Shown in pieces: positions 5,337 through 64,000 of a stretch of 64,000 nt of DNA. Within the stretch, counting starts at the first letter, position 1. Each line of letters begins with the position of its first letter. Where the stretch lies: contig OZ316896.1 of the NCBI GenBank assembly GCA_973895155.1, positions 5,213,925 to 5,277,924 of the forward strand, given 5' to 3'. The DNA is from Marsupella aquatica. Its lineage: Eukaryota; Plantae; Marchantiophyta. The notes beneath the pieces are model-generated. The model made no database searches. It was not told where the DNA came from and was given only the letters and a program-made list of their open reading frames with translations. A program made the translations under genes and the position numbers.

Positions 5337-7965
5337 TCAAATTTTGAAGTCCCGCAACTGGCTAACATTAACTCGAATGGAAGGTCCCATTGTTGAACAC
5401 ACATACGCTGTCTTCCAGTAGACTCCCTTTGATCCTGATGGTCTGTTGCTGTCCACAGAATTCTGTACACCCCAATCATTATTAAACTATTAGTGATTTT
5501 GACCTACCATCTGATAATTTCTATTCAATGAGCCCGTTGAAATTTACTTCAGTGCTGGGGCACAACGGCTTCGAGAACTAAGACAAAATAAATACAGTCT
5601 GGATAGGATTTTCTTTCGAGATCAGTCCACAGTAGCACCAATACATAGCTTTTCGCACAAAATGGAACCGAGGAGAAAATCGTGCTTAAGCAACATTTAC
5701 AAAAATAGAGAAATATAGCCATACTGTAATCCAGCAAAAGCCACGTACCGCAACTGCAACAAGATTTGCAAGGAGGTCTTCAGCTTCGAAATCAGTTTTC
5801 CCAAAAGGAACATGAACAATTCCTGTTTTATCACATCGATATTCCACCTTTCCAGCTTTGAATTCTTCAATGGCCTGAGGAAATCGAGCATACATACTGT
5901 CAGAGAACGCATAGGTGTAGACTACCTTCCGGAAATCTTAAAATGAAGGAAGCGGTCCAGCGATAAACCTTAACCGATGAGCAAAGTTACAAAGTCAACC
6001 AATTCGGATATGATTCACTGCTACTTTGCGTAGCACACGCTTACCTTGGTGACATCTACTGTGACAGTGCCCGCTTTGGGATTGGGCATCAACCCACGTG
6101 GACCCAACAACCTACCCAACTTCGCCACCTGCAACATCCACCTTTATATTAGCAATTGTGGCGAATCTTGTAATGTCTCTCCAGCCAATCAAATGCACAA
6201 ATGTTAAGGCAACTCTGTCTACCCCTGGAACAAACCCTGCTCTTATATGACGAGTCCCAGACTTAGTTATGCGGCACCTTGGGCATCATGTCCGGGGTTG
6301 CAATAAGCTTATCGAAGTCCAAAAACCCGCCTGCAATCTGCTCAATCAGATCTTCTCCTCCCACAATATCTGCTCCTGCATTTTTGGCCTCTTGCTGCTT
6401 TTCTCCTGGCAAAGACAATCAAGAAACATATTTAAGAAACAAATCAAAAATTGAATGATGAGATATGGCTCCTGAAGAACCTCTCAAACCTCTCGAATTT
6501 TAGCAGCACAGATACTGCCACTTCTAAGAAAGTAGATGTAGCTCATACATCTCAGGTCAGCCACGCACAGCAGAATTACCTAGGATTGACTATGTTCTAT
6601 GAAGCTCAATAAAATCACTCTGGCGCGGACCCTTCAAACCCCGTGGTTAGAGGTAGTTGGTTCACTTACTTGCTCAATTCTACTATTGAAAAAGCTATTT
6701 ACCAGGGGAAGTAACATGAGAAACCGAATTGGGTTCTGTTCATCAAGTCGCCTTCTCACTCATGGCTGTGGAGAATCATACTGAACCCCTACCCGCAGAC
6801 TTTTTAATCGAAGAATTCAGCCTGCAGGACCTTCGAAAGAGGCGTTGGGCTGAAGAGTTGCAGCTGCAGACTCTTCAGGAAGTGCCATCAATTTTCGGGA
6901 TATAACTTTGTTCACTATCGCTGGGTCCTGGCGACTACAACCAACCATTTACGTTCATAGATGCTGTCTGTACACTATGGTGTTACAAACCCACAAAAAA
7001 TCATTTTTGTAAAGAAGTTTTTGGAGGAGGTTGATGTCTGGGTTAGAATCCCAGCTTTCTGTCTGGTACAAGTCACAAACCTTGGGTGAGAATCGCCACT
7101 CTCACAACCTGTCCCGTTCCCTTGGGGAGTGAAACCTGCATACCAACTCCATTGCTGAGAAGGTGACGGTCACAAACACCCAAACAAATGTGGGAGAAAG
7201 CAAAGCGCCCGCAAGCCAAAATGACATTCTGCATAAAATCAATCAGGAAAAATGTGAACGAAGGCGAGAACTTTCCAACACATACCGTGGCTCTCAATTG
7301 TTGGTCGGTGTATTTAGGGTCTAAATTTAGGCGAAAGTGAGCCTCAGCAGTTTCAGCAAACTTAACACTGGCAGTCTCTTTGAGCAGTCGAATTGCAGTG
7401 GTGGGTTCGTACTCTTGCTTGCTAACGCGTAGCTTTGCAACTTCCAAGAACCTCTTGGATCGCCCCCCCTGTAAATCGAACGCGGAGCTTCAGCCACAAC
7501 ACGAACGCTAATTCCGAAAAAAACTGCCCTCGTATCAATAATACACTTGCATTCTTACTACATTCGGCAAATGCGTTGATCATTTCCTTTTCAGTTCATC
7601 ACCCGAAGGAACTACCATTTTGCAATCAATCCTCTACTCAAACTCAGTCAATGGCTGAGGTATACCGTTGTCCGGAATTTGCAATAGTCTGGCATCCTAA
7701 GAAAAGAGCATCAAGCGAGTAAAGAGCCGCCACCAACCTTATCGATCTTAGTAGAAGAAGGTTTGACAGAAATCTCCTCAGCAGCGGGAGCAGCAGCTTC
7801 GTCGTCCACTGCCACAGTCATCCGTATGCCCCTGTACACACCCCTCGCTTGTGGACGGGCACAGCAGCTACCCTGAAACGACCCACCATCTTTGCTATGG
7901 CTTTTAAGCCCCGACCACTGCGTCGCCAATGTCAGCCGACTCGTGCTGTTCACCAACGCCTCCAT
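5337..7965 (-). CDS. RPL1: 50S ribosomal protein L1, chloroplastic (uL1c), nucleus-encoded; exons 7965-7738, 7468-7286, 7135-7081, 6405-6278, 6128-6045, 5874-5749, 5462-5337 (309 aa)
   Basis: All introns GT-AG and phase-consistent. Ser/Thr-rich transit peptide; motifs [59 protein letters not shown]. Confidence 0.97.
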
Positions 7966-12946: not shown

Positions 12947-13269
12947 AAAGGATTCTCATGTTGAGAAGAATAATTAATCATTCCTTTCTTGGATGAATTA
13001 TTCAGTAACCACTTTGAAGCAAGAATAAATTAGTTTTGGGTGACTAGGTACTTGTGCTTGAATGTTTATTCTTTGAAAGTGTGTTCTGCTACTTTTTGCT
13101 TTATAAAGTGTTGGACCCACTTCTATCCCCACATGTCATTTGTGTAGTAGACAACTGCTTCTAAACTATTGTGAACCACTTTCAAAAAAATGGCGGGCCT
13201 CTAATGTTTTTCTCATTATGACTTAGGTTAGCACACGTCAATCAGTCAAAACCATAAACTTAGGAAACA
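12947..13269. repeat. dispersed repeat, copy 1 (second copy at 22973-23265)
   Basis: Shared blocks agaagaataattaatcatt, tagttttgggtgact, gggcct and ccataaacttaggaaaca in the same order. Confidence 0.75.
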
Positions 13270-16200
13270 TGGTCCATCGCCTTCCCTTTCTTTTCACATG
13301 CCTTGGTTGGGCCTTTTGTCGCTTCTTGATGCGTTTTTGCTTTTATCAGGTTGTGGCCCGTCATGTCTGCGTTGAGAGTGTTGGCGCGGGGCAAGCGCCC
13401 AGCCCCACCACACAATTCTCCCCCATCCTCCCCCCCCTCATGGCCGTCTTCGCATTTGCTCTTCTTCACTGGATCTCTCTCATCTTCATGATGACCCCAT
13501 GCCCGATGCTCTGCCAGTCCCCCCCAGTCTACTACCCACCCCATCGTCGCCCTGGCTCCTCTCCCCACCCCATTCCCCCTGCACCCATTTACCATCCTCC
13601 TCCGGCCTCCTCATCCACATCTGTTCCACCCCCACCTCCTGTCCAGTCTTTCTCTGCTCCCTCCCCGGATGAGCGTCCCCTGCATACTTGTCCTGACTGT
13701 GGATGGGTGGGCATCTCCCTCCTTCATCATCGCGGGCGGGGGCGGTGCCATCGTCGCCAGCAAGCACAATCCCAGCCCCAGCCCCCTATTGACCCTGTTA
13801 GCTCTGCCCCTCCCTCCTTGGAGGCTCCCAAGCAGGCATGGAGTTGGGTTCGCACTCTAGACCCCCTTCCAGCCTACCATCCAGGGTACATTAGACCTCG
13901 CCTTTATAACCACATTCCTCTCGCGCTGCGCCCTTTAGTTCGGTCCTCCTTGTTGCAACTCATGTAGCTTATCTTGGCGCATCCTATGGAGGTCTCCTAC
14001 TGGTCTTTACTGATGCTTTTTCCATAGTGGACTCTTACCCTCTCTAGTCATGGTGATCGTGTGGGTCACCGTGAGACTGCCTCTCGTATCCATCATTTTT
14101 TGCGGGGGAGATTGGGAGTAGCTTCAGGAAGAGTACTTTCTTCGCGTCCGATCTTTTACCACCCGTGCTTTGTCTGACCCAGCTCGCCACTCTCATCCTC
14201 CTGAGCATAGACGTCTTCATTGCTCTTGTTGTTTAGCCCGGGGTTTAGCCCAGGCTGGTGAATATAGTCGGGTTGTCCGGACCCTTTCTTCCACCACACC
14301 AGCCCCCCCTGGCGAGGTCATCTCGACGGCCCTTCAGGATCTCCATCCGCAGCCCCATGATCAGCTCCCTTTGTTCGTAGAGAATTTTGAGCCTGAGGAG
14401 GATCTTCAATTTAGTAGGGACCACTTTACCTATGCCTTCCTCCATGCCCCGCGTTGTGCTGCTGGTGGACCCTACGGCCATGTCTTTGAGCATTTTTGTG
14501 ATTTATTCCCCCCTGAGGATCCTTAGTCTAGTTTTCTTCTCCTTTTGCTAGTGTATTGCAGCCGGCCGTTTGCCTCCCCCCATCTCTCGGCTCTTGAGTG
14601 CTTCTTGTTTATTGGCCATGGCTAAGTCTTCATCGGGTGTTCGGCCAATTGCGATTGGGGAGGTTTTTCTTCGTCTGGTGTCTCGCACACTTTCCTCGCA
14701 GTTTTGCTCTGCACTATCGGATCATCTCTCTCCACATCAGTTTGCAGTGGACGTTCCTAGCGGTTGTGAGACAGTTATTGCGAGCATTCGAGCTACCTTG
14801 GACCTCCACCCTGATTGGGTTGTCCTCCAGGTTGATGTCTCTAACGCTTTTAATACGGTTTCTCGGGCAGCCATTTTTCATGCTTTGAGGGCGGCGGATC
14901 TAGACATCCAGTCCCTGATCCCCTTTTTCTGTTGTTTTTATGGACTTGAGGCTCCACTCTTCTATAGTCATCACTCCTCTACAGGAGTTTATACCACTCT
15001 TTCTTCTGCAGAAGGTACACGTCAGGGTGACCCTTTGGGTGGGTCTCTTTTTGCCATTGCCCATTTTACAGCTTTACGGGAAGCCGCCATGGCCCACCCC
15101 CAATGTATCTTTCCCTTCCTTTCAAATGACACCCACATCATTGGTCCTCCTATCGCGGTTACTTTTGCCCTCGCCACTCTTTCCACCCATTTGATGGGCC
15201 TCGGTTTACGGGTTCAGCCTGTGAAGAGTCGTGCATGGAGTCTAGCTGGGTTACCCTCTGATCTTGCGCTTCCCCCAGGATTCTTACGTCCAGCCGATGG
15301 TCTTCAGGTCCTTGGCTCTCCAATCGGTACCGCCTCCTTTTGCTCATCTTTCATCGTTGACGCTCTACAGGCTGCCTTAGCCCCTACTCCTATGCTCCCT
15401 AAGTTAGCAGATTCTCATGCAGCATTTGGGATGTTGTTGAGGGGCATCCACCCTCGTGCGTCTTATCTGGCTAGGATGCATCCCCCTACCGAGGATCTTT
15501 GTCTCCACCTTCGAGCATTTGATGTCTCCATTCGTGAGACTCTGGCCTCTCTTTTAGGGCCGGGTACGTTGCTCTCATCGACAACTCGGTCTTCCTATTT
15601 CGCAGGGTGGTTTTGGTCTTACTTCCATTGAGAGCCTTGCACCTTTGGCCTTTTTGGGTGCGTGGGCGGCCACCTTCTCATTGTTGGCCAATCGTTTCCT
15701 TACTGAGGATCGCCCTTTTTTACTTTCATCTCTCATGGAGGTAGAGGAGGGTTCCCTCCCGTTTCAGGTTCATTTACGTGCGGTGCAATCATCATTACCA
15801 GATCCTGTTTGCGCTGCGTTACCTTCTTTTCAAGAGTTTTTATCCTTGGATCCTGTCCGTCTTCAGGCAGACCTCATTGGGCGTATGCACGCTTTCACCC
15901 TTTCCGAGCATCCTGTCTGAGGCAACTGACACAGACCGAGCTCAGATTCTTTCTTCTGGAGGGAAGGGCGCAGGAGGATGGCTTCAGGCCAATCCAGTCA
16001 TTCCTCATTTGCGGATGTCTTCAGCGGAGTTCTCCACAGCCATGCGTCTTCGTATGGGGCTGCCCCACCCACTTCTTGCAGGTTTACCTCCTTCTTGCAC
16101 TTGTGGGAAGCCTTGTGATGCCACAGGTGTCCATCTTCTTCGGTGCAGTTTGGGAGGTGAAACCATTATTGTTCACGACGCTGTGCAAGATGCGACTACT

Positions 16201-16977
16201 CAGGTTCTCTCTGGCTCTTTGGTATGCGTGCGGTGGGAGGTGGTACTCGAGTTACTTGGTCCTCCATCACAGCGGTTACAGGTGGATCTTACCATGGTCC
16301 GTGAGGGTCAACGTACTTTGGCAGATGTAGTGGTGGCAAACCCATTGCGCCAAGACATCCTTGGGACAGCGGCAACAACGGCAGGGGCAGCAGCATCACG
16401 TGCGACAACAACAAAGGAGGCCAAATATGTTGCACGAGCTTCATCCGACAGCTTCCTCCCCCTTGCTCTGGAGCTATTTGGGCGTCTTCATCCTCAGTTT
16501 GATGGGCTTCTTCGGCAAGCTGCCCTGGATGTTCATGGTCGAATGGGTCCCACGGACCCCCGCTATCTGTTTTGACCACGCACTTTCGCCAACGCATTTC
16601 AGTCACCTTACAACGTGCTCAAGCTTGGGCCATCTATCGTCGATCTCTTACAGTGGGTGCTAGTGTGCCTTCGCAGCGGCTCGCTCCCCTAGAGGATGTT
16701 CCAATCCCACTTGCCGATCTAGTTTTGACCCTTGATGTGGACATTAGCTTTTTGCCAGATTTGCTAGGAATGATGAGGACCTCGATCCGTTTGGGTTAGT
16801 TTTAGTCTCTCTTTCTTGGTTTTTAGGGGTTCCCTATAGCTCATTTCTTACTTTTAGTTCCTCTTTTTTGGTGTTTAGAGGTTCCCTTTTGTTCACTTCT
16901 TTTACGTTTGGTTTTGTCCACTTGGACCCTCTTTTGTTTGTTCTTTTGTACTGTGTTTGTTCCCTTTCTATAAAAAA
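13270..16977 (+). mobile_element. decayed CRE-like non-LTR retrotransposon (RT plus restriction-like endonuclease)
   Basis: RT motifs RPIAIGEVFLRL, QVDVSNAFN, GTRQGDPLG, FLSNDTHI. C-terminal CTCG..H..C/HD, LADV and KEAKY..FLPLALELFGR. Several stops and frameshifts. T-rich 3' UTR ending tataaaaaa. Confidence 0.85.
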
Positions 16978-47167: not shown

Positions 47168-47369
47168 TAGCTGAACTACGTTCAGCATATGTGATGGGGG
47201 CTCGAAAAAAACCCCGAAGATACTTTTGTCAAAAATACATAATATTGGACTGCAATACTGGATTTCCATATAGCTTCCCTTGTTCTAAAGAGATCAATAC
47301 CAAATCTAATGTATTATATGAGGTATATAGTATTTGTATTCAGGCAAGATCATGATGGCTTAAACCACA

Positions 47370-48060
47370 CTTGTCCCCGGTTTAACCTGACGGGCAAGTT
47401 GACGGCTTGCCGGGCACGTCAAATTGTCAAATGACGGCTCGAAAATGATCAATTTGACGGATATTCCACAATATTCTCCCGAACTCACCCGGACTCCCCC
47501 GGACCCTTCCCGGACTCCTCCCGAACTCACCCGGACCCTTCCCGGACTCCCCCAGACCCGAACCCGGACTCCCCCGGACCCCGGTTCGGGGTGGCAGCCA
47601 GCCGGGGCCGGGTCTGGGGTCGGGGCTGGGGGAAGGAGGGCGGGGTTTAGAGTCCCGGACTCCCCCGGACCCGAACCCGGACCCTTCCCGAACTCCCCCG
47701 AACTCCCCCGACCCTCCCCCGAACTCCCCCGAAACTCCCCCGACCCTCCCCCGAACTCCCCCGAAACTCCCCCGAAACACCCCCGACCCTCCCCCGAACT
47801 CCCCCGACCTACCCTGAACTCCCGGTCCCCCGAACCTTGCCCAAACTCCCCCGAACCCGGCCCAGACTCCCCCGAACCCGAACTCCCCCTCGCCTGAACT
47901 CCCCCGAACTCCCCCGACCTCCCCCAAACCTCGCCCGAACCCGGCCCGAATGTCTCCCGAACTTGTCCCGGCCCGGACTGCTCCCGAACCCGGGTGCCGG
48001 GTTGCCGATTTGCCGACGATTTTTGGCCAGTTTGACGGGCAAGGTCAAACCGGGCACCTG
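47370..48060. mobile_element. GC-rich non-autonomous element (hAT-like) with 19-bp imperfect TIRs and CCCGAACT subterminal repeats
   Basis: cttgtccccggtttaacct versus reverse complement caggtgcccggtttgacct (15/19 matches). Dozens of cccgaact/cccggac motifs. No TSD seen. Confidence 0.6.
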
Positions 48061-49074
48061 TCCCTATAAAGGGCTAGGGGTAACCCATATCTCTCATTGT
48101 GAAGAGCATAGGTTCAAGAATGGACTTTGAGCTTCACAAAAGGTATTTATTGATAATTTTTTTTTTGGCAAATATTACACAAAGGTGCTAGTGTTACACT
48201 TTTTTGGTGATGAGTGAGATATGGAATGAAACTTTTATAGTGGCAGGTGTGATTTAAGTAGGCACAGGAAAGAGAATAGAGAAGAAGTATTTGTATTTTG
48301 TGTTTATTTCATTCTTTTGTTATTTTTCATTTTTTTTGTCTTAAAAGCTAAATATATTTAGTATTCTTTTGTTGTGGCGGATGATCTGGTTGCATTCCAC
48401 TCATTTTTTCATTGTTGGCCTTTGTCCACTTGACCTATAATGTGTTTGGTCTTCGTGCATGGCTGGGACCTTGTTTTTTGAGTCTGGCCGTGTTACTCCT
48501 TGATGTACTGGGTATTTATTCCGATTCAATAAAGAGCTCACTTCAAGACAAAAAAAAGAAGACCTGTGAGCGTCGAGAAAAATAAGTGCAAGAGGACGAA
48601 ATGCATGAGAAATAAATGCTACGAGAAAAGAGCACAACACAAACATGAGATCCGTGACTCATATCGACGGCTTAAATCGTGCCACGGACAGTAGGAGGGC
48701 ACCCGGATGCACCGTACCGTCGACGTCCCCATTATACGGTCGATATCCACACGCGGGAAAGGGCGGGCGAGCGGGTGGGCAGACGGGCAGGGCAGGGTAG
48801 GGTAGGGCAGGGCAGGACGACGGTGGATCTCAGAAACGGACCGGTGATCCTGAGAATCAATCACACTTCTGACGTCAGACGGCGACGGTTGCGTTTCCGA
48901 GCAGCGTCGTCGTGTCGGTCGATCGCCGACACGCAGACGGAGTTCGGGCAGTGGGGGCACTCTCGGGCAGACGTCAGCAGAGAAGTAAGTACTCGGGATG
49001 CGATGCCACGTGGGATGCGCAGGCGCTGGGTACGGTTTTAAGGTCGATTTTTTTTTCCTTTTTTCCTTTTCCAC

Positions 49075-53000: not shown

Positions 53001-56000
53001 AGGAAAATTCAGGATGTTTAAAAGGATGTATGGCAAGACCTGGGGCTCAAAGTCGCTGACCTTCCCATGATTCCAAAAAGAACCTGGCAGGGGGCTCCGT
53101 TCCTTTGCTGATTTATTATCATATGTACATATATGGTAATTCCCTCTGCTGCCATTCTAGCTGTTCCAACGATGATTGGAGTCGTGGGAGATTCTCTTTG
53201 ACATTGGAAATAAAAAAATAGAGCAATGAGTGCGGTTTGCAGATCGATCATGATACTGACACAGAATTATGGAAACAGTACAGACTGGTCATGTTGGTAA
53301 TCTATAGCCCCGTCCACAGCCCAGCTGGTAAGACGGGATCAAACAGCAACAGTGCTCCCCTTTCCCAACCTCCCAGCTGACAGATCGAATCGCTATAGTA
53401 GAAGTGGAGGTACGTTCAGCATGTTTTTGGAGAATTCACAGTCAGTGGACGTCTCTTGTCAACTGATCGACCATCCCATTTGACGTATGGCCTGTGGTTC
53501 CGCAAATTTCAAAAGTCTACAGTTGCTTTCGCTTTAATTCGGCAGCTGCTCCTAGAGCTGACAACAACGGGTCCCTCCAATTGAACCGAGTGACAGTCAC
53601 GTTCCGATTGGAACAACTCTCCTTTGAGATATATCCTTAGCTTATCGAGTGAACGTGAGCTGCTGCTGCAAATCGTCGTCTCGCCGATGGAGCATTTGAA
53701 CATTTTAAACGCAGCACGACAGTGAGATTGAATCTGCCCATGCATCACGGGTTATACTCTCGCTCTTTTCTTTCCCTGAAAATTCCTCTTTACTGCAATA
53801 AAGTGAAAGAACACATTCCGCATCATTGCAATAAAGTGAAAGAGCACACAGAACGGGTTACACATTTTCTAAGCTCATTCTGACACTCTCGTACAAAAAC
53901 CCTTGCAAGCGGAAGTTATGCATGAATATTCTGAAGCTCCTTCAATCGCATGCGGTATGCCAATTCTGTCCTAAGACGCTTTTACCAGGAGCGAGAAGTC
54001 AGATTCCAAAGTAGCATCCAGTTGATCACCGTAGCGATTCGATGCAATTCGGACGGTCATCTTCCTTCACAGAACATAATCATTTCCTGGCGCAGCAAAA
54101 ATAACTATCCTGCATCTAATCATTCTGGACCTGCCATGCCTCGGGACGGAGAGCAAACGCAGATCGCACTTGAGCATGATTCTAGGCCTGCCACTAGAGA
54201 GCAACACCAGCAGACAGTTGCATGCGCATCAGGCAAGTAAAATATGGAACCGTTCTGAACTTTTGTACAGCAAACAGTACATCCGACCTCTTAATATTGT
54301 CAGCAACTGGTCCAATCCATGCCATAGTCATATCTAATCAGCCCCAAATTAAATAGCTTTTCCAATGTCAAAGACGCTCTTGAGACACAAGTTTCCAACG
54401 AACTATGATCCACCAATTTTGATGCCTTATAGAGATTCTTCAACATCATTGCAAACTAAGCTCGGGGGGACCTGGGACTGCCAGCCAGAACTTCTAAGAG
54501 CTTGTCACGAATGTTGACAGCAATCGAACCTAATATATAAACCCCCTGAATGGTTGTTACGAATGTTGACAACAATCTAACTTAAATTATAAACCCTGAA
54601 TGCTGAGAAAGGGGTCAAACTTTGAGAGGTGATCCTCATGTGAAATCAAGTTTGGGGAGACCTAAGGAATCGACAATGGCTAGTTGGTTTTCTAGATCCT
54701 TGTCTTTGGCACTTGGATGTTCTTGGGGAGCCAAAAAGGGAACCTTGGGCATCATGTGTCCACATATATGGTGGTACTTACTTTTTAACCGTAGACCTTC
54801 CTGATACAACTTCCAGGGGTTTGTTTCAATAACTGCGTTACTTTGCACAGGAAGTAGAAACAGTTGTAGGGTTGGCCTTGCAAGCGGTGCACCAGGATAA
54901 CATTCTATATATAGGATGTCAACATATAGGGAAACACAACAATCCAAATGATAGCCAGAACTTACGGTCATAGACTTAACCTCGGACTTAACATAAATAT
55001 TTATTTAATGCTAATATTATAGAAGATGATGATGGTGAAATCGAACCATAAAATTTTGATGGCTCAATCTTTGGGTGGATGATCACTTGTGATTTTAGAG
55101 TCTTGGCCTTCGTATGAGTTTTTTCCCTCCCTATGTTTAGTCAAGATCATTAAGTGTGAAACTCGGGCTGGTTAAATGCAGTGCATGAATGCAACTATAC
55201 AGTAATTTGATCTGTAAGATGATGAACTTTTCCTTATCATCCGTCCTAAGTAATATAAATGACAATGAAAATGCAACATCTCCTTTAAACCGCCACTGTC
55301 CATATAAATATCACATGGGGACAAGTTCCGGTCAGGTTATTTTCTCCGGAGGTGCCCAGCAAAGGCCCTGCTCCTGCCTCCCAGCCAGAGCCTGTAGCGG
55401 TGTAGCCCCAGCCAGGCTCCGCAATTCAAGCGGAGCCAGTGGTCCGCCGAAAAGCCCCAGCCAGGGTCCACAATACAAGCTGGGTCAGAGGTCTGCCAAA
55501 AAAGCACGTTGGGACATCCCGTCAGTGAGTTTGCTCGCATGAATGCCAGTGCCATGGTTCGTGAGTGTGGTGGGCTGCTGCCATGTAGCCATGGAGGTTC
55601 GTGAGTGTGCTGGGCTTGAAAAGCAGTTGTATCCGATATGGGGGTTTCTGCTTGTGCTGGGCTGAAGGGGAATCGCCATGTTCTCTCAACTCCCAGAATG
55701 TCAATCGATCGCAAACGTGTTTACAGCCAGCAATTGTTAATGTCATGTACAAGTTTACACTTCGTATGACATCGATCACAAATTTGTCCAGCAAAACTCT
55801 ATTCTCAATAGCAAGACGGCGAAAAGGTTACATTGTTTTTTTTTGTCTCCCTGCTCTGCTGCGATCTTCCATTATATGTACAGATACCTGGAAAAGCAAA
55901 GTCTCCCTGTTTTGATTGACAATAACAACTATGTGAATAAGAGGCAATGGCTGATGCCAATAGCAGTATAACCGGAAGATGAAGGATGAACTCTGGCTGT

Positions 56001-58207
56001 GGAGTGTTGCCCAAAGCTCTCCATAATTATCCAAACTTTGCGTAATGCAAAAGCTTCCGATGAAATCTCAATATGTAATTGAGGTCGCCGACACGGAAAG
56101 AAAGATCACAGCTCAACGATCAAAGTGTGTTCTGGAAGGGCTACTGTAGGTCCAATGCACCATGCAACTAAACTTCTTGAGTTTTCCATTTATGCACCAG
56201 TTTGTCGGATGGACTAAATTTCCGATAGTGGGATGGATGAACACATTCGCTACACTAATAATCCATGACACAATTCCAAACGAGATCTAGCTCATTCATA
56301 GCGAGACTCATTGTTGTATAGAATGAATGACTCGACCAGTGAGTGTTTGTAAAGCAATTCAATTCTCTTCCAATAATGTTCCCAGTACTTCCCATTACCA
56401 AGACATCGGACTATGGTAATTTCCAAAAGCAAACACAATGACCACGATGTCTTCATCAGAAGTTTGGCTCAGCACTGGCTGTTGCTCCGGCTTGGGCAGT
56501 GACATGGCGAGGGCTGCTCGTGCTCATAGCTAGTGACAAGCTTATCGCAACGGCTCCACTCGATCAAGAGCTTGAAGGCTGCGGGCGCTACACTCGCGTT
56601 GGACGTCACCGCGGGGCGAGCCACAATTTAAACATTGCAGCAAGTCAACCACGATTGATGAAGGCCTATGGGGGAGCACGAGTGGGGAATAGAAGTTTAG
56701 AAAGTCTAGAGCAGTCCCTAATAGAATCCACTCTGGTCGATAGATCTCTAGATATCAAGTTGACTATACGTTGTGAGAATCCACTCAAAGAGAGCAACTC
56801 AAACCGCAGTAGATTGGACTTCCGGGGTGTCAGGCAGAGGAGGAGAGGAGATATGTTCTAGCTGTCTGCCATGGCCATCAATCACCAATCCTCGTTCAAT
56901 CTTAGGAGTCAAGACGTTGTTGACTGGTTCATTCTCGCATACAGATAGCCTGATTATTCATGCCGATTGTAGAGCCTTGCCCGTGCTAAGACTGAAAACT
57001 ATGAACAAAACCTAATGAAAAAGAACTTGCTTCATCAATGAATCCATGCACCATTGCTACCGCTCGCCATCGCTATCGTGAGGTCCACTTACCACCAACA
57101 ATACCAACTCTGGACATGTACGAGCTAGGATGCAATTACCATAGCTTACTGGTCACTTGGACAGAGAACGTCCATGCCAGAACCCCCAGCTGAGAACAAC
57201 TGAACTCCACAACCCAAAGCTCGAACCTCCTTCCAAGCGGTCCAAGCTGAATAAGAACCAAAAACTTTGCATGCGCATCCATATCTTTTCGGGACAGAAA
57301 TGGCATAAGACGACAACCAATGCACAACTGCTACTGGTATGAACCAGCGATTTTATGGATTGCTCTATTATAAGCTCCGATTGCACAATCGAGCTGTCGC
57401 TTTCTCGAGTCTCTACTGCCAGATTGTGCTTGATTTACGTCTCTGCTCATTTTTGTTGACGAATGATGTTCGCACATTGCTAAGCAAAAGATATGACAGC
57501 TTAGCAACGCCGCAACATTGCTTCATTCTTTATGAACATTCGATCATCTCAAACCACATGATGTCAGTGAGCATATCGACTTCACATAACTAAAGTTTCC
57601 TAACCTTCTGTGTCCATCCTGTAACCAATTCCACAATGTTTGTGAAGATCGCGATTCGGCAATGCTTCTCCTTCCTTTGGCCATGCACTTCAAGGTAGAC
57701 GTAGATGAGCTTTAGGTAGTTCCCAGGTGCAATGATCGTTTTACACATAAGGACACGGTAACCATTTCCACAATGTTTGTGAGGATCACGATTCAGCGCT
57801 GCCTTTGGCCATGCATGCACTTCAAGTTAGACGTAGATGAGCCGAGAGATGAGCAGGGTAGTTCCCAAGTGCAATTATCAATTTACACATAGCAACACGA
57901 AAGGGTCAACATGGTTTACACTCAACGGGAGCCGGCTAGTTCGTTGCTGCAATTCTCTTTTTACACACAACATATAGGGTCGGGGGCAAGGTGGCATGGT
58001 TTACACACAATTTACACGTTAGAGGCAAGATGTGTAGGACAAATCCATTTGCATCTGTTGTGAGGGAAGGTATGAACCTACTAACTATTAAACTCTTGCA
58101 TCTTTTTCCCTAGTGCATTCTTGTGAGCTTGGTACTAGACAAATATAAGGACTTCTAATTTACAAAAATGTTGTTATTGTATTGTTATGGTTGCCAGAGT
58201 AGGAGAA

Positions 58208-61200
58208 ATGGTCCGGCAACCACATAAGATTGATTATCACCGAGTTGGGGGCAATATTGCATTTAGGCTTCCTGTCAGTCATATAAGTACATACCATCAC
58301 TTACAGGGTGCCCTACAAATGTCCCATGGGAAGGTGGTGGCTTGGCTAATGGATGGTATGTCCATGCAAATCTCTGCTGCTATTAGTGCTCATCATAGAC
58401 GGGATGAAGAGGAAGTAATAGCATTTGAGGGTCCTAATGACTTTGGATGGATAAATAATGAACACCTTGCTAATGATGATGACTTGGGAACATTTGGGAC
58501 CATAGCCGAGGTACTTTTAATATCATTTTTCCTTCAACTTTCAAGATTGCTTTCTTTCACTATTCCCTGTTTTCTAGGTTTTCATTCGAGTAAACCTCTT
58601 CTAGCATCTTTTTTCTCTATTTAAAAAATTGGGGTTATCCAGAATGTAGAGGTTTTGACTTTGGTAAATCATGATTTAGTATCGTTGTTGACACTGTATG
58701 TTTTTATTTATTTCTTGCAGCCATGTTGTGGTGCACTATCATCCTTTCCAAATGGTGACAACACCATTCCTAACGAGGCATCACCTTCAGACGAGGAGCA
58801 AGATGATTCAGACTTGAACACTAGTGTATTTGACCACATTGAGTCTGGGGAGGAGGATGCAGAGCACATTTCAGATTCCAACATAGATGTGGAAAATGGT
58901 TCTATGATGTCCAATTCCCAGGTAACTTTGTTTAGGGTTTTTAATCCTTTTGCTTTGTGTTACATTTGTTCCATAAATTGACAAGTTATGCAAATGACGA
59001 AGTTTACTTTACATAAAAATGCATTCATTTTATGTAAACCTCTGTATCTTCAACTAAGAAACAAATATTGCACACTAAACTCGTAACATATGTCAAATGA
59101 GGATGGTGCCAATCATTTGCTAGAACTGGCTGATCCAAGTACATTTGGATTGGACAATACGGTTTTCATGGATTCTGGATTTGAAGAGAATCACACTCAG
59201 GTATTACAGCATTTTTTCACAATGTTGTCATTGACTGTCATTTGGATCAATTCATAGTTATAATTATATTTTTTTCCTATTTTTGCATCTTTACATAGAT
59301 TACTAATTATTGTGTGCTTTTCTAGGCATCTAGCTCTTCGGAGCAAGTAGAAGTTGACTCTCGTTTGGATTTTGAGTACGAGCCATCCTCTCAAGAAAAT
59401 ACAAACGAGTCAGACCCTGAGAGTCTAGTGGAGTATGCTTTTTGGCAAAAAAGCAAGGTCCACGAATTTTTCCAGGAATTTTGTGTGCATTGTCGTGTTG
59501 AAGGTTGTGTTGGTAAGTATTCAGTTGAGGACATTGTGACCCACCATCAATTGTGGATATTGAAGTTGAAGTGCCCAATAGGGCATACACAATCTTTTAT
59601 GACTGGAGAGAATGAACTTCATAGAGGTATGTCATTTGCTCAACTTAATACTACTACTTTTGTATTGAATTAAGTTAAAATTGTGTGTTTCCTTTTAAAA
59701 AGTTTATAAGATCTTGCTTTATTGATCCCAATTATTGATGAATACACTCAGGTGTACCTACAATCACTGGACTGATTTACCACTCCACTCTCTCGGCTGG
59801 TTTAACACACAATATCATATGTGAACTATTCTCTCACATTGCAATCCATGTTCCAAGAAACACTCATTGGTTTCGATTTCAAAATGGAGCCCGAAGAGAC
59901 ATTGGATGGATTGCAGCAGTACTGCAAGTTTGGAATGATAAGAAACAAAGGCTACAACGAAGCCTAGCAGAAAGAGATGGTATGTCATTCTTATTTCTAG
60001 TAAGCATTTGTTAGTTAGCAAGATTGATTGTTTTTACTATATGATACTAGTTTGTTTGAGCATGCATGTACATGTTAGTTTCTAAATATTATTTTGTGGA
60101 TTTATGATAATTGTAGGTTCTACGCCAATGATTTTATATGTGGATTGTCGTTGGGACTCATCACGTTCTGGATATCATGGCACTGTTCCTGTGATAGACG
60201 TTTCTACTAGCAAGATAGTAGAACTTGTAACAATTTACCGAGTTGAGGCTGGGAATTCAAGCGCTATTGAGGCAATTGGTGTTCGTCGTGCCCTGCAACA
60301 TCTTCAGGATGTTGGAGTTACAATTAGTGAGGTTGTTCACGATGATAACCACACAGTTGATGCTATTCTTTGTGAGCTCAATGTTGATAACCAGAAGGAT
60401 CTATGGCACAAATGTAAGAATCTTTTGAAGCAGTTTAACAAAGACCTGGCAAATGTGAAGGAAACAGCACCCGCTGGTGGGATTGATGGTGCAATATCCT
60501 TGCAAGAATTGGGCAGATTCACTGTTCAAGTGTTGTCCAATTGGTGCAAGAATCAGAATTTGAGGTATACAGGTAACAAGACAGACTTGGTGCTTCGCAT
60601 TGGAAGACATAGAGGGCTTCCGGAGGAGGACATCACATTGCGCACCAGGAGGCAATTGAAGTATCCAGAACTAACAGAGAAACAACTTGGTGATAAGTTG
60701 AAGAGTTGGTTCTACTATTGTTGCTGCAATGCAAAAAAAAGGTAGGATGACAACTATGATATTATATTGCATTGAGATTAACTTGAGCAATCAACTCTTT
60801 CATTGTTTGAACTAAGCTAACTCTTGAATTATATTGTATGACTATTTTCTAATAGGGGAAACGATGATGCTACCATGTTGGCTAGGGAGATCATCACAGC
60901 AGCTAATCATTGGGCTGGTAACCATGAACCTTGCAAAAACTTCCTTCCTCGCAAGTGTTGTGAGGAAGGTGCAACTTATATGCCATACTATGCCGCAGGT
61001 ACTGTGTATTGATTATTAAATTTGGTTGTAAGTTATATATTTCTGAGATAAGTAATTTGCTTGGATTGTTACCTAATCTTTTGGGATTTCTAATATTTTT
61101 AAATATATGGATTATTGTGGATTTTGCAGGGGGATCTACACATAGAGCTTTGAAGCAATGGTTGCAAAAGAACATCACTGCAGTCAATGTTCGCTTCTAC

Positions 61201-61491
61201 ACTAGAGCCAGAGCAAACTTTTTCAGTGAAACATTTCATGGAAACATCAACAAATATGCTATGAAAAGGATTCATTTTTCCATGACTCATGAAGCTCGCA
61301 TGGCATGTGCTGCAATGTGCTGGAATGAAAACATTGGTAGAGAGGTGGTACGAATTCGAACACGGCAGCCTAGTAATACATGTACCCGACAGCGTACATC
61401 AAGAGTTCGTGACCTTGTTCCTAGAAGTATCAGGTGGAAGAAAGATGTGGCTCGTATCATATTTGGAATAGGTGTAGACTATGATTTGTGA
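58208..61491 (+). CDS. DDE transposase, Kolobok/Mutator-like, with SAP-like insertion; exons 58208-58510, 58721-58921, 59102-59200, 59326-59626, 59752-59979, 60117-60741, 60856-60998, 61130-61491 (753 aa)
   Basis: Phase-consistent GT-AG model without stops (the exon 3 acceptor is weak). Motifs CVHC..CPIGH, LYVDCRWDS, SSAIEAIG, VVHDD, KDLWH, NHWAGNHEPC and SETFHGNINKYAMKR..ARMACAAMCWNEN. Confidence 0.85.
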
Positions 61492-62381
61492 TATTTTATA
61501 CATTTATTTTGGCTGAAAAGTTCCACCGTTGTCTTGCATTTGACATGTATGGCATATGTAAGTTGTAAGTTAAATTACTATATTCATTTATCATCTTTTT
61601 AGTCCCATAGATCACCTTGCCATCTATTTTTGTTTTTGTAATAGAATATATATAATTTGTAGGATGTGAAAGTTAGGGCTTAGCACCATGAACAAAAATT
61701 GTGAGTTATGTCGCCGTATTACAACTTTGGAAATGGCCAGTCGTGGACCAAGTGTCCCTTACTGGCCATGCCTATGATACATCCTGTAACATGCAGCATG
61801 GCATTGCATTGCAAAAAAACTTAGTGGATACATTGCAAATATTTTTCAAAATTTAACTATACTCCAAAGGGGAATTGAACCCCTCGTGCTGCCATCCAGT
61901 AGGAGTTCCAACCCAAAGGAGGGGGAAGGAGGCACAAGCCAAAAAAACACAAAAAAGTAGCACAAAGAACCCATACAATGATAATACTAGGAATAAACAA
62001 ATATAGATACATTAAAAATCAGAACCTAAAAAAACCAAATGTAGAAACCAGGATGGTATTTGCCTCACATTTCCCAAGGATTTTGCGGTGCAATTGGGAG
62101 AAAAAAGGAGGCACATGCCAAACAAAGAAAAAAATAGTATAGTAGAACAAAGAAAACAATAAGTATTTAAGTAACATAGATGGAAAGGCATAGCTACAAA
62201 GCCTTAGAGCACTAAAGGCATACACCAACATGGTATTTGCTTAGCAGCTCCCAGGTTATTGACACTTGCGACTGGGAAAGGAAAGATGGCACATGTGAAA
62301 CAAACATGAAAAACACTAGTGAAACAAAGAACCCATGAAAAAAACTCAAGTGGTGAAAAGAAAAAAACACAAGTTAGAAAC

Positions 62382-63135
62382 CTAAAATCGGAAACCCACA
62401 TGTTCTTCGCCCGGTAGTTCCCAAGTGGATTGCATTACAGCTGTGACTGCTGCTGGGAAGGGTGTTCTATCAGCAAAGCTAGCAATATATGCTAGTTTGC
62501 GATACACAATATATCTCTGTCGACGAGGAACTGTTTCAGTGTATGCCCATGCAGCACACATATGAAAAGCTTCAGCTGTCGCAGGGGAAAGAACCTGGGC
62601 AGAGTTGAGGTCCTCAAGGTTGTCGTCTATCGCCGTGCAAAAAGCCGGGAACCTAGCAACTATGTCAGCATGTCTCAAAAGTCGGAATTTGCGACGTCCA
62701 GGTCGAGGAACAGGCCATGATAAGTGATATATGTGATCTCCATAGGAGATCAGCTCTGCCGGTCTGTTATGATGCTCGGCGCTCCTACAAAACATATGTA
62801 GGAAATTCAACACATACACTTGTTATCCCTAGAACACTAATGCAAGTAATTTATGTTTGATGGAGGTTATATTGTACAGCCAATTGAGCAACAACAAGCA
62901 AGTATTATGTGTGCATGAAAGAAAGTTAATTGTAAATAAATTCACATAGTTTGCAAGGTAGACAAAGTATATGCATGCAAGGTGCCAACACACGGAAATG
63001 TAAACATGATTGACCAAGAAAAAAATGAAGGGTAATAGCAAGTTTTATGCATGCATATTTGAAAGTCTTCGGTCAGTTGGAAGAAAAAATTAAAATTGTA
63101 GACATGCGTGATTGAATGTACCTGAAATTATTCAT
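62382..63135 (-). CDS. 138-aa KolX / P2X7 cytoplasmic-ballast-like protein; exons 63135-63122, 62784-62382
   Basis: ATG AAT AAT TTC AG|GTACAT...TGTAG|G AGC joins in frame. C-terminus RRQRYIVYRKLA..RTPFPAAVTAVMQSTWELPGEEHVGFRF fits the RxxxYR..RxxxPxCV..IR..FP..G.Y.GF pattern. Confidence 0.7.
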
Positions 63136-63172
63136 TGCAAGGGTGATCGATAACCCCTTCAATAACTTGGGT

Positions 63173-63343
63173 AAGTATTCTGAAGGGATGAGAACAACCA
63201 AACTGCAGAACCGCCGATCAAAGAACACTGAAAGTATTCTGAAGGGATGAGAACAACCGAACTGCAGAACCGCCGATCAAAGAACAAAAGTATTCTGAAG
63301 GGATGAGAACAACCGAACTGCAGAACCGCCGATCAAAGAACAA
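63173..63343. repeat. three ~57-bp tandem copies
   Basis: aagtattctgaagggatgagaacaacc.aactgcagaaccgccgatcaaagaaca three times. Confidence 0.95.
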
Positions 63344-63646
63344 AATGAGCTGCGCGCAGTAGTTCAAGCACGCCCTTCTTCTTTGGAGTGTCCTAAACAC
63401 AAAAACTAGGCTAGCGAACAACCAAGGAAAATGAGCTGCAAGCGGGGCTGCAAGTGTACTTGAAGCATGCCCACCCTTCTTACTAGAGTCGTAAACCAAA
63501 AGTGAGAAGCAGCACAACTACACAGTTTTGGTCGTAAACATAAAGAGCGAGAACCAATTATGGAAGCATAGAGTTTTTATATACACAACCTGTGTGAGCA
63601 CAATAGGCATGGGCAAGGCATTACTGTGAGCGTCACTGGCCATAGC

Positions 63647-63921
63647 AGCGCAAAGTAGCTTCATTGGCCTAATGTATTGTTAGTATGCTGCTTGAATTGA
63701 CAGAGGATGGGCGCCCGGATGGGAGGCCAATTGTAATTGAGTGTGATTGGCCACCGAAAGATTCATAGCATTTCGGATTAGCGCAAAGTAGGTGAGCTTC
63801 ATTGGCCTAATGTATTCTTAGTATGCTGCTTGAATTGATAGAGGATGGGCGCCCGGATGGGAGGCCAATTGTAATTGAGTGTGATTGGCCACCGAAAGAT
63901 TCATAGCATTTTGGATTTGCG
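63647..63921. repeat. ~135-bp tandem duplication
   Basis: cttcattggcctaatgtatt..gaggatgggcgcccggatgggaggccaattgtaattgagtgtgattggccaccgaaagattcatagcattt twice. Confidence 0.93.
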
Positions 63922-64000
63922 TGGGTGATGCACTCATCCACAGGTATGCAAAGACCCGTGCAAAGAGTGTCGGTGAGGATAGACGTTGCCCAAGAAGTGG

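Follow-up and report, generated by a model that had tools for sequence, protein, structure and literature searches.

Does a land plant carry a two-gene transposon of the Kolobok type, in which a DDE transposase is accompanied by a small gene akin to KolX and to the ballast domain of the P2X7 receptor? The question is raised by a stretch of 64,000 nucleotides (nt) from the liverwort Marsupella aquatica (assembly GCA_973895155.1, contig OZ316896.1, positions 5,213,925 to 5,277,924 of the forward strand), hereafter called the window, in which a predicted transposase gene and a small gene on the opposite strand lie tail to tail. The locus is in our judgement probably one copy of a multi-copy, likely recently mobile Kolobok-type cut-and-paste transposon of more than 8.7 kb, which carries the transposase gene together with a probable KolX-derived gene. 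The coordinates of its features are collected in Table 1.

The predicted transposase and its relatives

The predicted transposase open reading frame consists of eight exons, which when joined via GT-AG introns of 114-210 nt give 753 codons and a stop codon, with no internal stops. This reproduces exactly the model of an earlier interpretation made from the letters of the window without database searches, hereafter called the sequence-only reading, together with its D-D-E triad, DxWH motif (here DLWH) and zinc finger motifs. The exon junctions of both genes are predictions from genomic DNA, and none of the 6 public runs listed for the sequence is an RNA run, which has no bearing on expression. 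The motifs YVDCRWDS, VHDD, DLWH and SETFH are present and correspond to residues D387, D453, D472-H475 and E667, respectively. Among the relatives which have a residue at the position in question, the catalytic residues are kept in 16/17 (D387), 19/19 (D453) and 17/19 (E667), and the DxxH motif in 17/18 (D472) and 17/17 (H475). Counted in the same way, a Cys/His finger formed by C257, C262, C284 and H288 is kept in 10/10, 9/9, 7/8 and 7/8 relatives, and a finger with H609, C612 and C620, located between DxxH and the catalytic glutamate, in 18/18, 15/18 and 19/19.

Residues 184-745 have 45% amino acid identity (567 columns, E 2e-160) with the protein R1sor_008396 of Riccia sorocarpa (KAL3694745.1, P0001), and exon 1 has 37% identity (E 2e-7) with the N-terminus of the same protein. 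The four downstream junctions fall within the sequence aligned with Riccia, with insertions or deletions of at most two residues. The acceptor of exon 3 at 59102 is weak and has no pyrimidine tract. At positions 59087-89 the window copy has CAT, whereas nearly all other copies seen in public contigs have CAG, which would give an in-frame exon 3 of 111 nt; the normal exon 3 acceptor has therefore probably been lost from the window copy. The window copy would probably either skip exon 3, in which case the protein has 720 amino acids and the frame is still open, or be spliced at a cryptic AG.

A search with exon 6 gave 11 transposase relatives (nine from Riccia and two from JGI) and a profile search gave 17, all from Riccia. 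Over both searches 23 distinct relatives were obtained, 21 of them from Riccia liverworts, and, one artefact excepted, all named relatives of both element proteins are from liverworts. The Riccia genes are annotated merely as 'hypothetical' or 'SAP domain-containing', and the transposase loci of R. sorocarpa, at least 13 in number, are scattered and in many cases truncated. No relatives were found in the metagenome and viral contig collections that were scanned. In a tree of 14 transposases, constructed without Kolobok references, the window protein has a long branch and falls outside the groups formed by Riccia; vertical and horizontal origin are not separable in this tree. A relative of 527 amino acids from JGI/IMG (P0007 cluster, 18 members) is apparently uninterrupted and is found on many short contigs, and its cluster branches away from the Riccia proteins in the same tree.

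The small gene R1sor_008397 of R. sorocarpa (KAL3694746.1, P0037) is the next locus after the transposase gene R1sor_008396, the two having consecutive locus tags and accessions and lying on contigs of equal length, and the pairing thus probably recurs in a liverwort. When seven small-gene loci and 13 transposase loci were placed at random in a set of 27,626 genes, the gene total given for R. sorocarpa in PMC11735767, 1.0% of simulations gave an adjacent pair. The sequence-only reading had taken the pair for a plant lineage of the element. This view is supported, since the named relatives are from liverworts and the genes are consecutive in R. sorocarpa as well as convergent in the window. The lineage is also present in liverworts.

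The transposase is likely of the Kolobok type. Pfam scans of the window transposase and its relatives gave no match to the MULE or MuDR families (which we take to be PF10551 and PF03108, respectively), and six of the 12 relatives scanned gave weak matches to PF20700 ('Mutator-like transposase'; E 3e-4 to 3e-3), with scores under the curated cut-off. The structural neighbours of R1sor_008396 in the ESM Atlas are animal and protist PF20700 clusters (TM 0.68-0.76), including clusters with THAP, RNase_T and YqaJ, which are described as accessory domains of Kolobok lineages (PMC9587614). Compared by eye, the transposase core follows the Kolobok rows in Data S5 of the same paper, the nearest being Kolobok_1_MyEd, Kolobok_1_OwFu and Kolobok_16_CGi_2p, and a zinc finger between DxxH and the catalytic glutamate is given there for the superfamily with the exception of the Kolobok1 lineage. 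The PF20700 matches and the Atlas neighbours, taken with the absence of MULE or MuDR matches, agree with the Kolobok-like transposase of the sequence-only reading rather than with a plant MULE.

No THAP domain was matched by exon 1 (E ≤ 1), which has no cysteines, or by the full-length Riccia relatives. A SAP domain was recognised between DLWH and the finger that precedes the catalytic glutamate (profile match to PDB entry 1jjr, E 1e-5). As predicted here, a SAP domain inside the catalytic region of a Kolobok-type transposase is a new feature, and a literature search pairing Kolobok with 'SAP domain' found nothing.

The small convergent gene

The small gene can be read on the minus strand as two exons (63135-63122 and 62784-62382), giving 138 amino acids, or alternatively as one exon that begins with an ATG at 62795, giving 137 amino acids. 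The tail-to-tail arrangement and the frame of 138 amino acids stand as in the sequence-only reading; the first of its two exons is optional, the one-exon model being equally good. A diverged contig matches only 62442-62796 of the small-gene region.

A HMMER search of 1.84 billion representatives gave 20 matches, one of which, a tandem-repeat protein from sturgeon (P0025), was an artefact and was removed before counting. The 19 relatives comprise six from R. sorocarpa, one from R. fluitans, one from Calypogeia fissa, three from JGI and eight from Logan. A word-index search with the small protein gave no match, and the ESM Atlas gave no usable match. The AlphaFold2 model built from the family alignment (pLDDT 89) has three strands followed by helices. 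A model built from the single sequence (pLDDT 51) gave only generic helical matches and was discarded.

The conserved tail of the family consists of R-x3-Y, then R-x3-P, a tryptophan 11 residues past the proline and GF nine residues past the tryptophan. This spacing, over about 45 residues, matches that of piggyBac-2_GrCh_2p, a cysteine-poor KolX-like protein (PMC9587614), and also the positions R546, Y550, P570 and F581 of P2X7 (PMC7016195), the loop being four residues shorter in the window protein. The corresponding ballast pattern, fitted after both sides had been viewed, fits the window protein, only 12 of the 19 relatives, 0 of 200,000 shuffles and one peptide of the six-frame translation of the window. 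In a fold search of 48,161 chains, rat P2X7 (6u9v_A), the target named beforehand, was at rank 41 (Z 3.5, root-mean-square deviation 3.5, 74 aligned residues, 15% identity) and thus within the top 0.1% of chains, at a Z score in the noise range and with 40 unrelated chains above or level. The alignment places model residues 58-133 on residues 401-593 of rat P2X7, i.e. on the ballast, and brings the two C-termini into register.

The Pfam P2X7 C-terminal domain matched neither the window protein nor any of the 20 search matches, and a profile search of PDB sequences gave no P2X7 match. Foldseek comparison of the pLDDT 89 model with the PDB and viral libraries gave nothing at E ≤ 0.001, and in a further structure search with this model P2X7 was absent from the matches listed. 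The zinc-cysteine cluster is absent; the main exon has two cysteines, conserved in 13/19 and 7/18 relatives. The kinship proposed in the sequence-only reading is weakly favoured by the tail spacing and by the fold match named beforehand, and disfavoured by the missing Pfam and sequence matches and zinc cysteines. On balance, the small protein is rather likely to be akin to the C-terminal half of KolX, and probably represents a zinc-free relative of the P2X7 tail, as known from the animal receptor.

Copies, the left end and competing explanations

The evidence for further copies comes from contigs of four public runs of two studies, X1 and X4 among them. At single sites, up to 13 contigs carry other letters over both genes. 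Over the two genes the X4 depths add up to 178-383; near-exact contigs reach 20-24 and the flank contig 9. These values are contig depths and not copy numbers. Among the listed coding differences from other copies, 13 of 22 are synonymous, compared with 21-25% expected (p 1e-4 to 7e-4), a count made on 40 of 1,264 variant rows, those with the best support. This synonymous excess points to purifying selection, as expected of a transposase family that had to keep moving.

Six contigs of X1 and five of X4 begin their exact match at 55285, with preceding sequences that are unrelated (agreement 0.49 and 0.54, respectively), and the X4 depth steps there from 9 to 117-146. The TTAA at the inferred left end (55285-55288) is thus seen with 5-6 unrelated flanks, and a right-hand copy of the site would lie outside the window. 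Near-exact contigs of equal depth, approximately twice that of the flank, tile 55285-63626 with gaps, as would be expected if there were two nearly identical copies, or one element that is homozygous while its flank is heterozygous. We infer that the left arm, in which short tandem repeats are found at 55404-55502, 55544-55616 and 57621-57899, is part of the same element as both genes. A joint from 55787 to 62063, present in three of the four runs with a short side of only 28 letters, hints at an internally deleted copy. At 63729-64000 the depth is still over the level of the near-exact contigs, no TTAA occurs past 63090, and no inverted copy of the left end was found within the 64-kb window, so that the right terminus was not reached and the element would exceed 8.7 kb. 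For comparison, full-length Kolobok copies of the frog are 6.8-13.9 kb (PMC6004289, Table 5). The sequence-only reading had left the element as either still mobile or domesticated as a pair; the multi-copy family and the TTAA-bounded end favour the first option and speak against the second.

Several points weigh against a single mobile Kolobok-type element with a KolX-derived gene. They include the limits given above with the PF20700 scores, the ballast pattern, the Z score, the contig depths and the synonymous count, and the failure of the Pfam and PDB profile searches and of the cysteine pattern to connect the small protein with P2X7. Additionally, six of the seven small-gene loci of R. sorocarpa are not beside any of the 13 retrieved transposase loci, the nearest being 12 tags off; both searches for relatives give cluster representatives only, and the Riccia pairing is known from locus order and not from orientation. 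The left end and the genes are not joined by any one contig, and the left arm contains an 80-nt piece of foreign appearance. The left terminus is AC, with no variant listed at these two places, whereas the Kolobok rule is 5'-RR ... YY-3', and the element is therefore named Kolobok-type and not a canonical member.

One alternative is a Kolobok-type transposon whose small gene is an unrelated, plant-specific passenger, the likeness to KolX being a coincidence in a short helix-loop-helix tail. The failure of sequence searches, Pfam and Foldseek to give a match at E ≤ 0.001 and the fold-search Z of just 3.5 are in line with this, as are the N-terminal sheet and the missing cysteine cluster, which are unlike the KolX described in PMC9587614. 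We nevertheless consider a passenger unlikely, since for about 45 residues the spacing of the tail is that of a published KolX-like protein and of the P2X7 positions, the P2X7 chain named beforehand is in the top 0.1% of chains, aligned on the ballast with C-termini in register, and the small gene is convergent to a transposase of Kolobok type. Improbable to a similar degree is that the TTAA end at 55289 derives from another TTAA-targeting element, e.g. a piggyBac-like or non-autonomous one, the true ends being elsewhere, possibly near 58000. The terminus AC would fit such an origin, around 58010 the depth climbs a second time, loose ends being present at 57939-58131, and the arm is spanned by no contig. 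The near-exact contigs of equal depth that tile across arm and genes, the 55787-62063 joint that looks like an internally deleted copy, and the published range of full-length Kolobok elements (PMC6004289) argue for an arm and genes that belong together.

Two further explanations are much less probable than these. Open frames, introns and a synonymous excess are also seen in host genes, and the locus could accordingly be read as a domesticated pair, i.e. two transposon-derived genes kept by the host for a cellular job, as in the Harbinger nuclease/Myb pairs. That it is not a single-copy domesticated pair follows from the numerous diverged copies and from the TTAA end, which has several unrelated flanks, and the scattered and often truncated loci of R. 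sorocarpa (at least 13), the intact catalytic residues and the loss from the window copy of a splice acceptor kept by other copies also make domestication very improbable. An ordinary plant MuDR/MULE element with a captured gene fragment could appeal to the name of PF20700, 'Mutator-like transposase', and to the C/DxxH signature which MuDR shares (PMC9587614). It is hardly credible in view of the absence of MULE or MuDR Pfam matches, the animal and protist Atlas clusters with Kolobok accessory domains, the end bounded by TTAA, and a small gene which forms its own family of 19 and is no host fragment.

In the Kolobok-type transposon that we prefer, the N-terminal domain and the Cys/His finger of the spliced transposase, probably together with the SAP domain, would bind the element ends, and these parts would hold the ends or the target DNA in place of THAP. 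By analogy with the family, D387, D453 and E667 would excise the element and catalyse its insertion into TTAA, the target site observed on the left. The small protein, predicted to have a three-stranded sheet and helices, would have kept of the KolX/P2X7 ballast only the C-terminal half, which does not hold the zinc. It would most likely act as a helper or regulator of transposition, the part presumed for KolX, travelling as it does with the element. A broader proposal, to which we give even chances, is that of an undescribed Kolobok-type lineage of land plants which inhabits liverworts and is still amplifying, with a SAP domain in its core, AC termini and a zinc-free KolX, and in which the C-terminal half of the ballast, a domain at one time described as an invention of animals, would be an old, zinc-independent transposon-helper module.

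Relation to known elements and other features of the window

The element resembles Kol0 (type Kolobok-1_XT; Kojima and Bao 2022, PMC9587614) in its DDE transposase with DxxH, its zinc finger before the catalytic glutamate, its TTAA site, here observed at the inferred left end, its small second gene, which is ballast-related in Kol0 and probably here, and its length, which would be within the 7-14 kb range. Its departures from canonical Kol0 are the SAP insert, located after DLWH, in place of THAP, which is usual at the N-terminus of Kol0 (PMC6004289) and was not matched here, the zinc-free partner, which is without the seven zinc cysteines of KolX, and the end AC instead of RR. The host, a land plant, is also different, and by eye the finger before the glutamate is H-x2-C...C, as in other Kolobok rows, and not H2CH as in the XT row. 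With the MyEd, OwFu and 16_CGi rows (by eye, Data S5 of PMC9587614) it shares an arginine following the first aspartate, an HD second-aspartate motif, DxWH, a PEL-like motif before the W/LY helix, the H-x2-C finger and the lack of CCHC after the first aspartate, whereas those elements are from animal hosts and have no SAP insert visible in the rows.

The KolX-like proteins of piggyBac-2_GrCh and piggyBac-14_PI (Data S6, PMC9587614) have, like the small protein, the C-terminal half of KolX without most of the zinc cysteines, and the GrCh protein specifically has the same R/Y, R/P, W and GF spacing; both differ in being borne by piggyBac elements and in having a loop four residues longer and another N-terminal half. 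Cysteine-poor KolX-like proteins are known from a few piggyBac families, according to the same source. The predicted C-terminal helices are similar to those of the P2X7 ballast/nanor/ZCD (Rump et al. 2020, PMC7016195; PDB 6U9V), a domain that went undetected in plants in that paper. Equivalents of R546, Y550 and P570 are present, most relatives have a basic residue at the R578 position, and the dinuclear-zinc cysteines of P2X7 are absent.

One of the published Kolobok rows, KlNi, is by our guess from Klebsormidium. Together with the Kolobok elements of Micromonas and the red alga CCri (KlNi row in Data S5, PMC9587614), it represents Kolobok of the plant kingdom in a broad sense. Micromonas and KlNi have CCHC after the first aspartate and CCri is paired with RecQ, and they are therefore lineages other than that of the window element. 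The hosts of Kolobok listed in the same paper are animals, fungi, protists, a chlorophyte and red algae, with the KolX-bearing Kol0 from animals. The sequence-only reading had named mainly animals, protists and fungi, which is right for those hosts and is to be extended by the green and red algae already recorded there.

A literature search on Kolobok in Marchantia, moss, liverwort, fern, bryophyte and land plants found no description of a land-plant family among the papers listed; Repbase may hold unpublished plant entries. In a paper on spinach (PMC6337768), Kolobok is a mere label among 67 miscellaneous elements, and in a survey of 1,007 plant genomes it is named once, in the methods, among the superfamilies screened (PMC12973397). 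Plant repeat pipelines rarely recover Kolobok. The element is a range extension with a new architecture and not a new kind of system. If confirmed, it would bring to the land-plant mobilome a superfamily that targets TTAA and provide a candidate active element in a plant; its small protein would be a stripped-down natural KolX, and a comparison with the KolX of animals would single out which part of the ballast is needed by a transposon.

Table 1 Features of the putative element (positions are those of the window; junctions and arms as predicted or inferred)
Feature	Position	Strand	Remarks
TTAA at inferred left end (target site)	55285..55288	.	contigs matching from here on
Inferred left arm	55289..58207	.	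terminus AC, tandem repeats, transposase promoter region
Predicted transposase exon 1	58208..58510	+	N-terminal domain, no THAP match
Predicted transposase exon 2	58721..58921	+	acidic linker; unconserved in Riccia
Predicted transposase exon 3	59102..59200	+	optional exon within acidic linker; in-frame acceptor of other copies at 59088-89 absent here
Predicted transposase exon 4	59326..59626	+	Cys/His finger C257-C262-C284-H288
Predicted transposase exon 5	59752..59979	+	
Predicted transposase exon 6	60117..60741	+	D387, D453, DLWH (472-475), inserted SAP domain (about residues 510-540)
Predicted transposase exon 7	60856..60998	+	finger H609-C612-C620, upstream of catalytic E
Predicted transposase exon 8	61130..61491	+	E667, basic C-terminus, stop
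Inter-stop spacer	61492..62381	.	890 nt between facing stop codons; repeats ~179 nt apart
Small gene, main or sole coding exon	62382..62795	-	137-138 amino acids; KolX-like, without zinc-cysteine cluster
Small gene, possible first exon	63122..63135	-	14 nt; predicted, optional
Inferred right arm	63136..64000	.	tandem repeats 56-nt x3, 138-nt x1.9

Some further observations concern the arms and the spacer. The 80-nt piece of the left arm (55945-56025) has a much higher depth and, in other contigs, conserved but different flanks, and probably represents a fragment that also occurs in another repeat family. In each run, 3-5 contigs share only the first 33 nt (55285-55317) and continue with a conserved, diverged version of the arm; these could represent a sister subfamily or the right end, which is not in view. 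Within the spacer, contigs of three or more runs join position 61908 back to 61860 with nine letters between, which suggests a short duplication within the spacer of other copies. A motif mirrored between the arms (55333-43 on the minus strand; 63342 and 63428 on the plus strand), exact with the variants of other copies, was rejected, as matches with two mismatches are at chance level (26 vs 29.6).

Elsewhere in the window, exon pieces of an intron-split nuclear gene for ribosomal protein L1 of the plastid type are found at 7076-7489 on the minus strand. The best solved relative is entry 4v61, which we take to be the chloroplast ribosome, with an E value of 3e-24, far above the rows of bacterial L1. 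Together with the liverwort origin of the named relatives of both element proteins, this gene points to a plant, and probably to a land plant, as the host, in keeping with the source of the window. A relic of a non-LTR (long terminal repeat) retrotransposon, spread over several frames, lies at 13227-16575 on the plus strand and has a reverse transcriptase match (PF00078, E 8e-11). The G+C-rich, low-complexity stretch at 47360-48130, which is open in four frames over both strands, is probably a degenerate tandem repeat.

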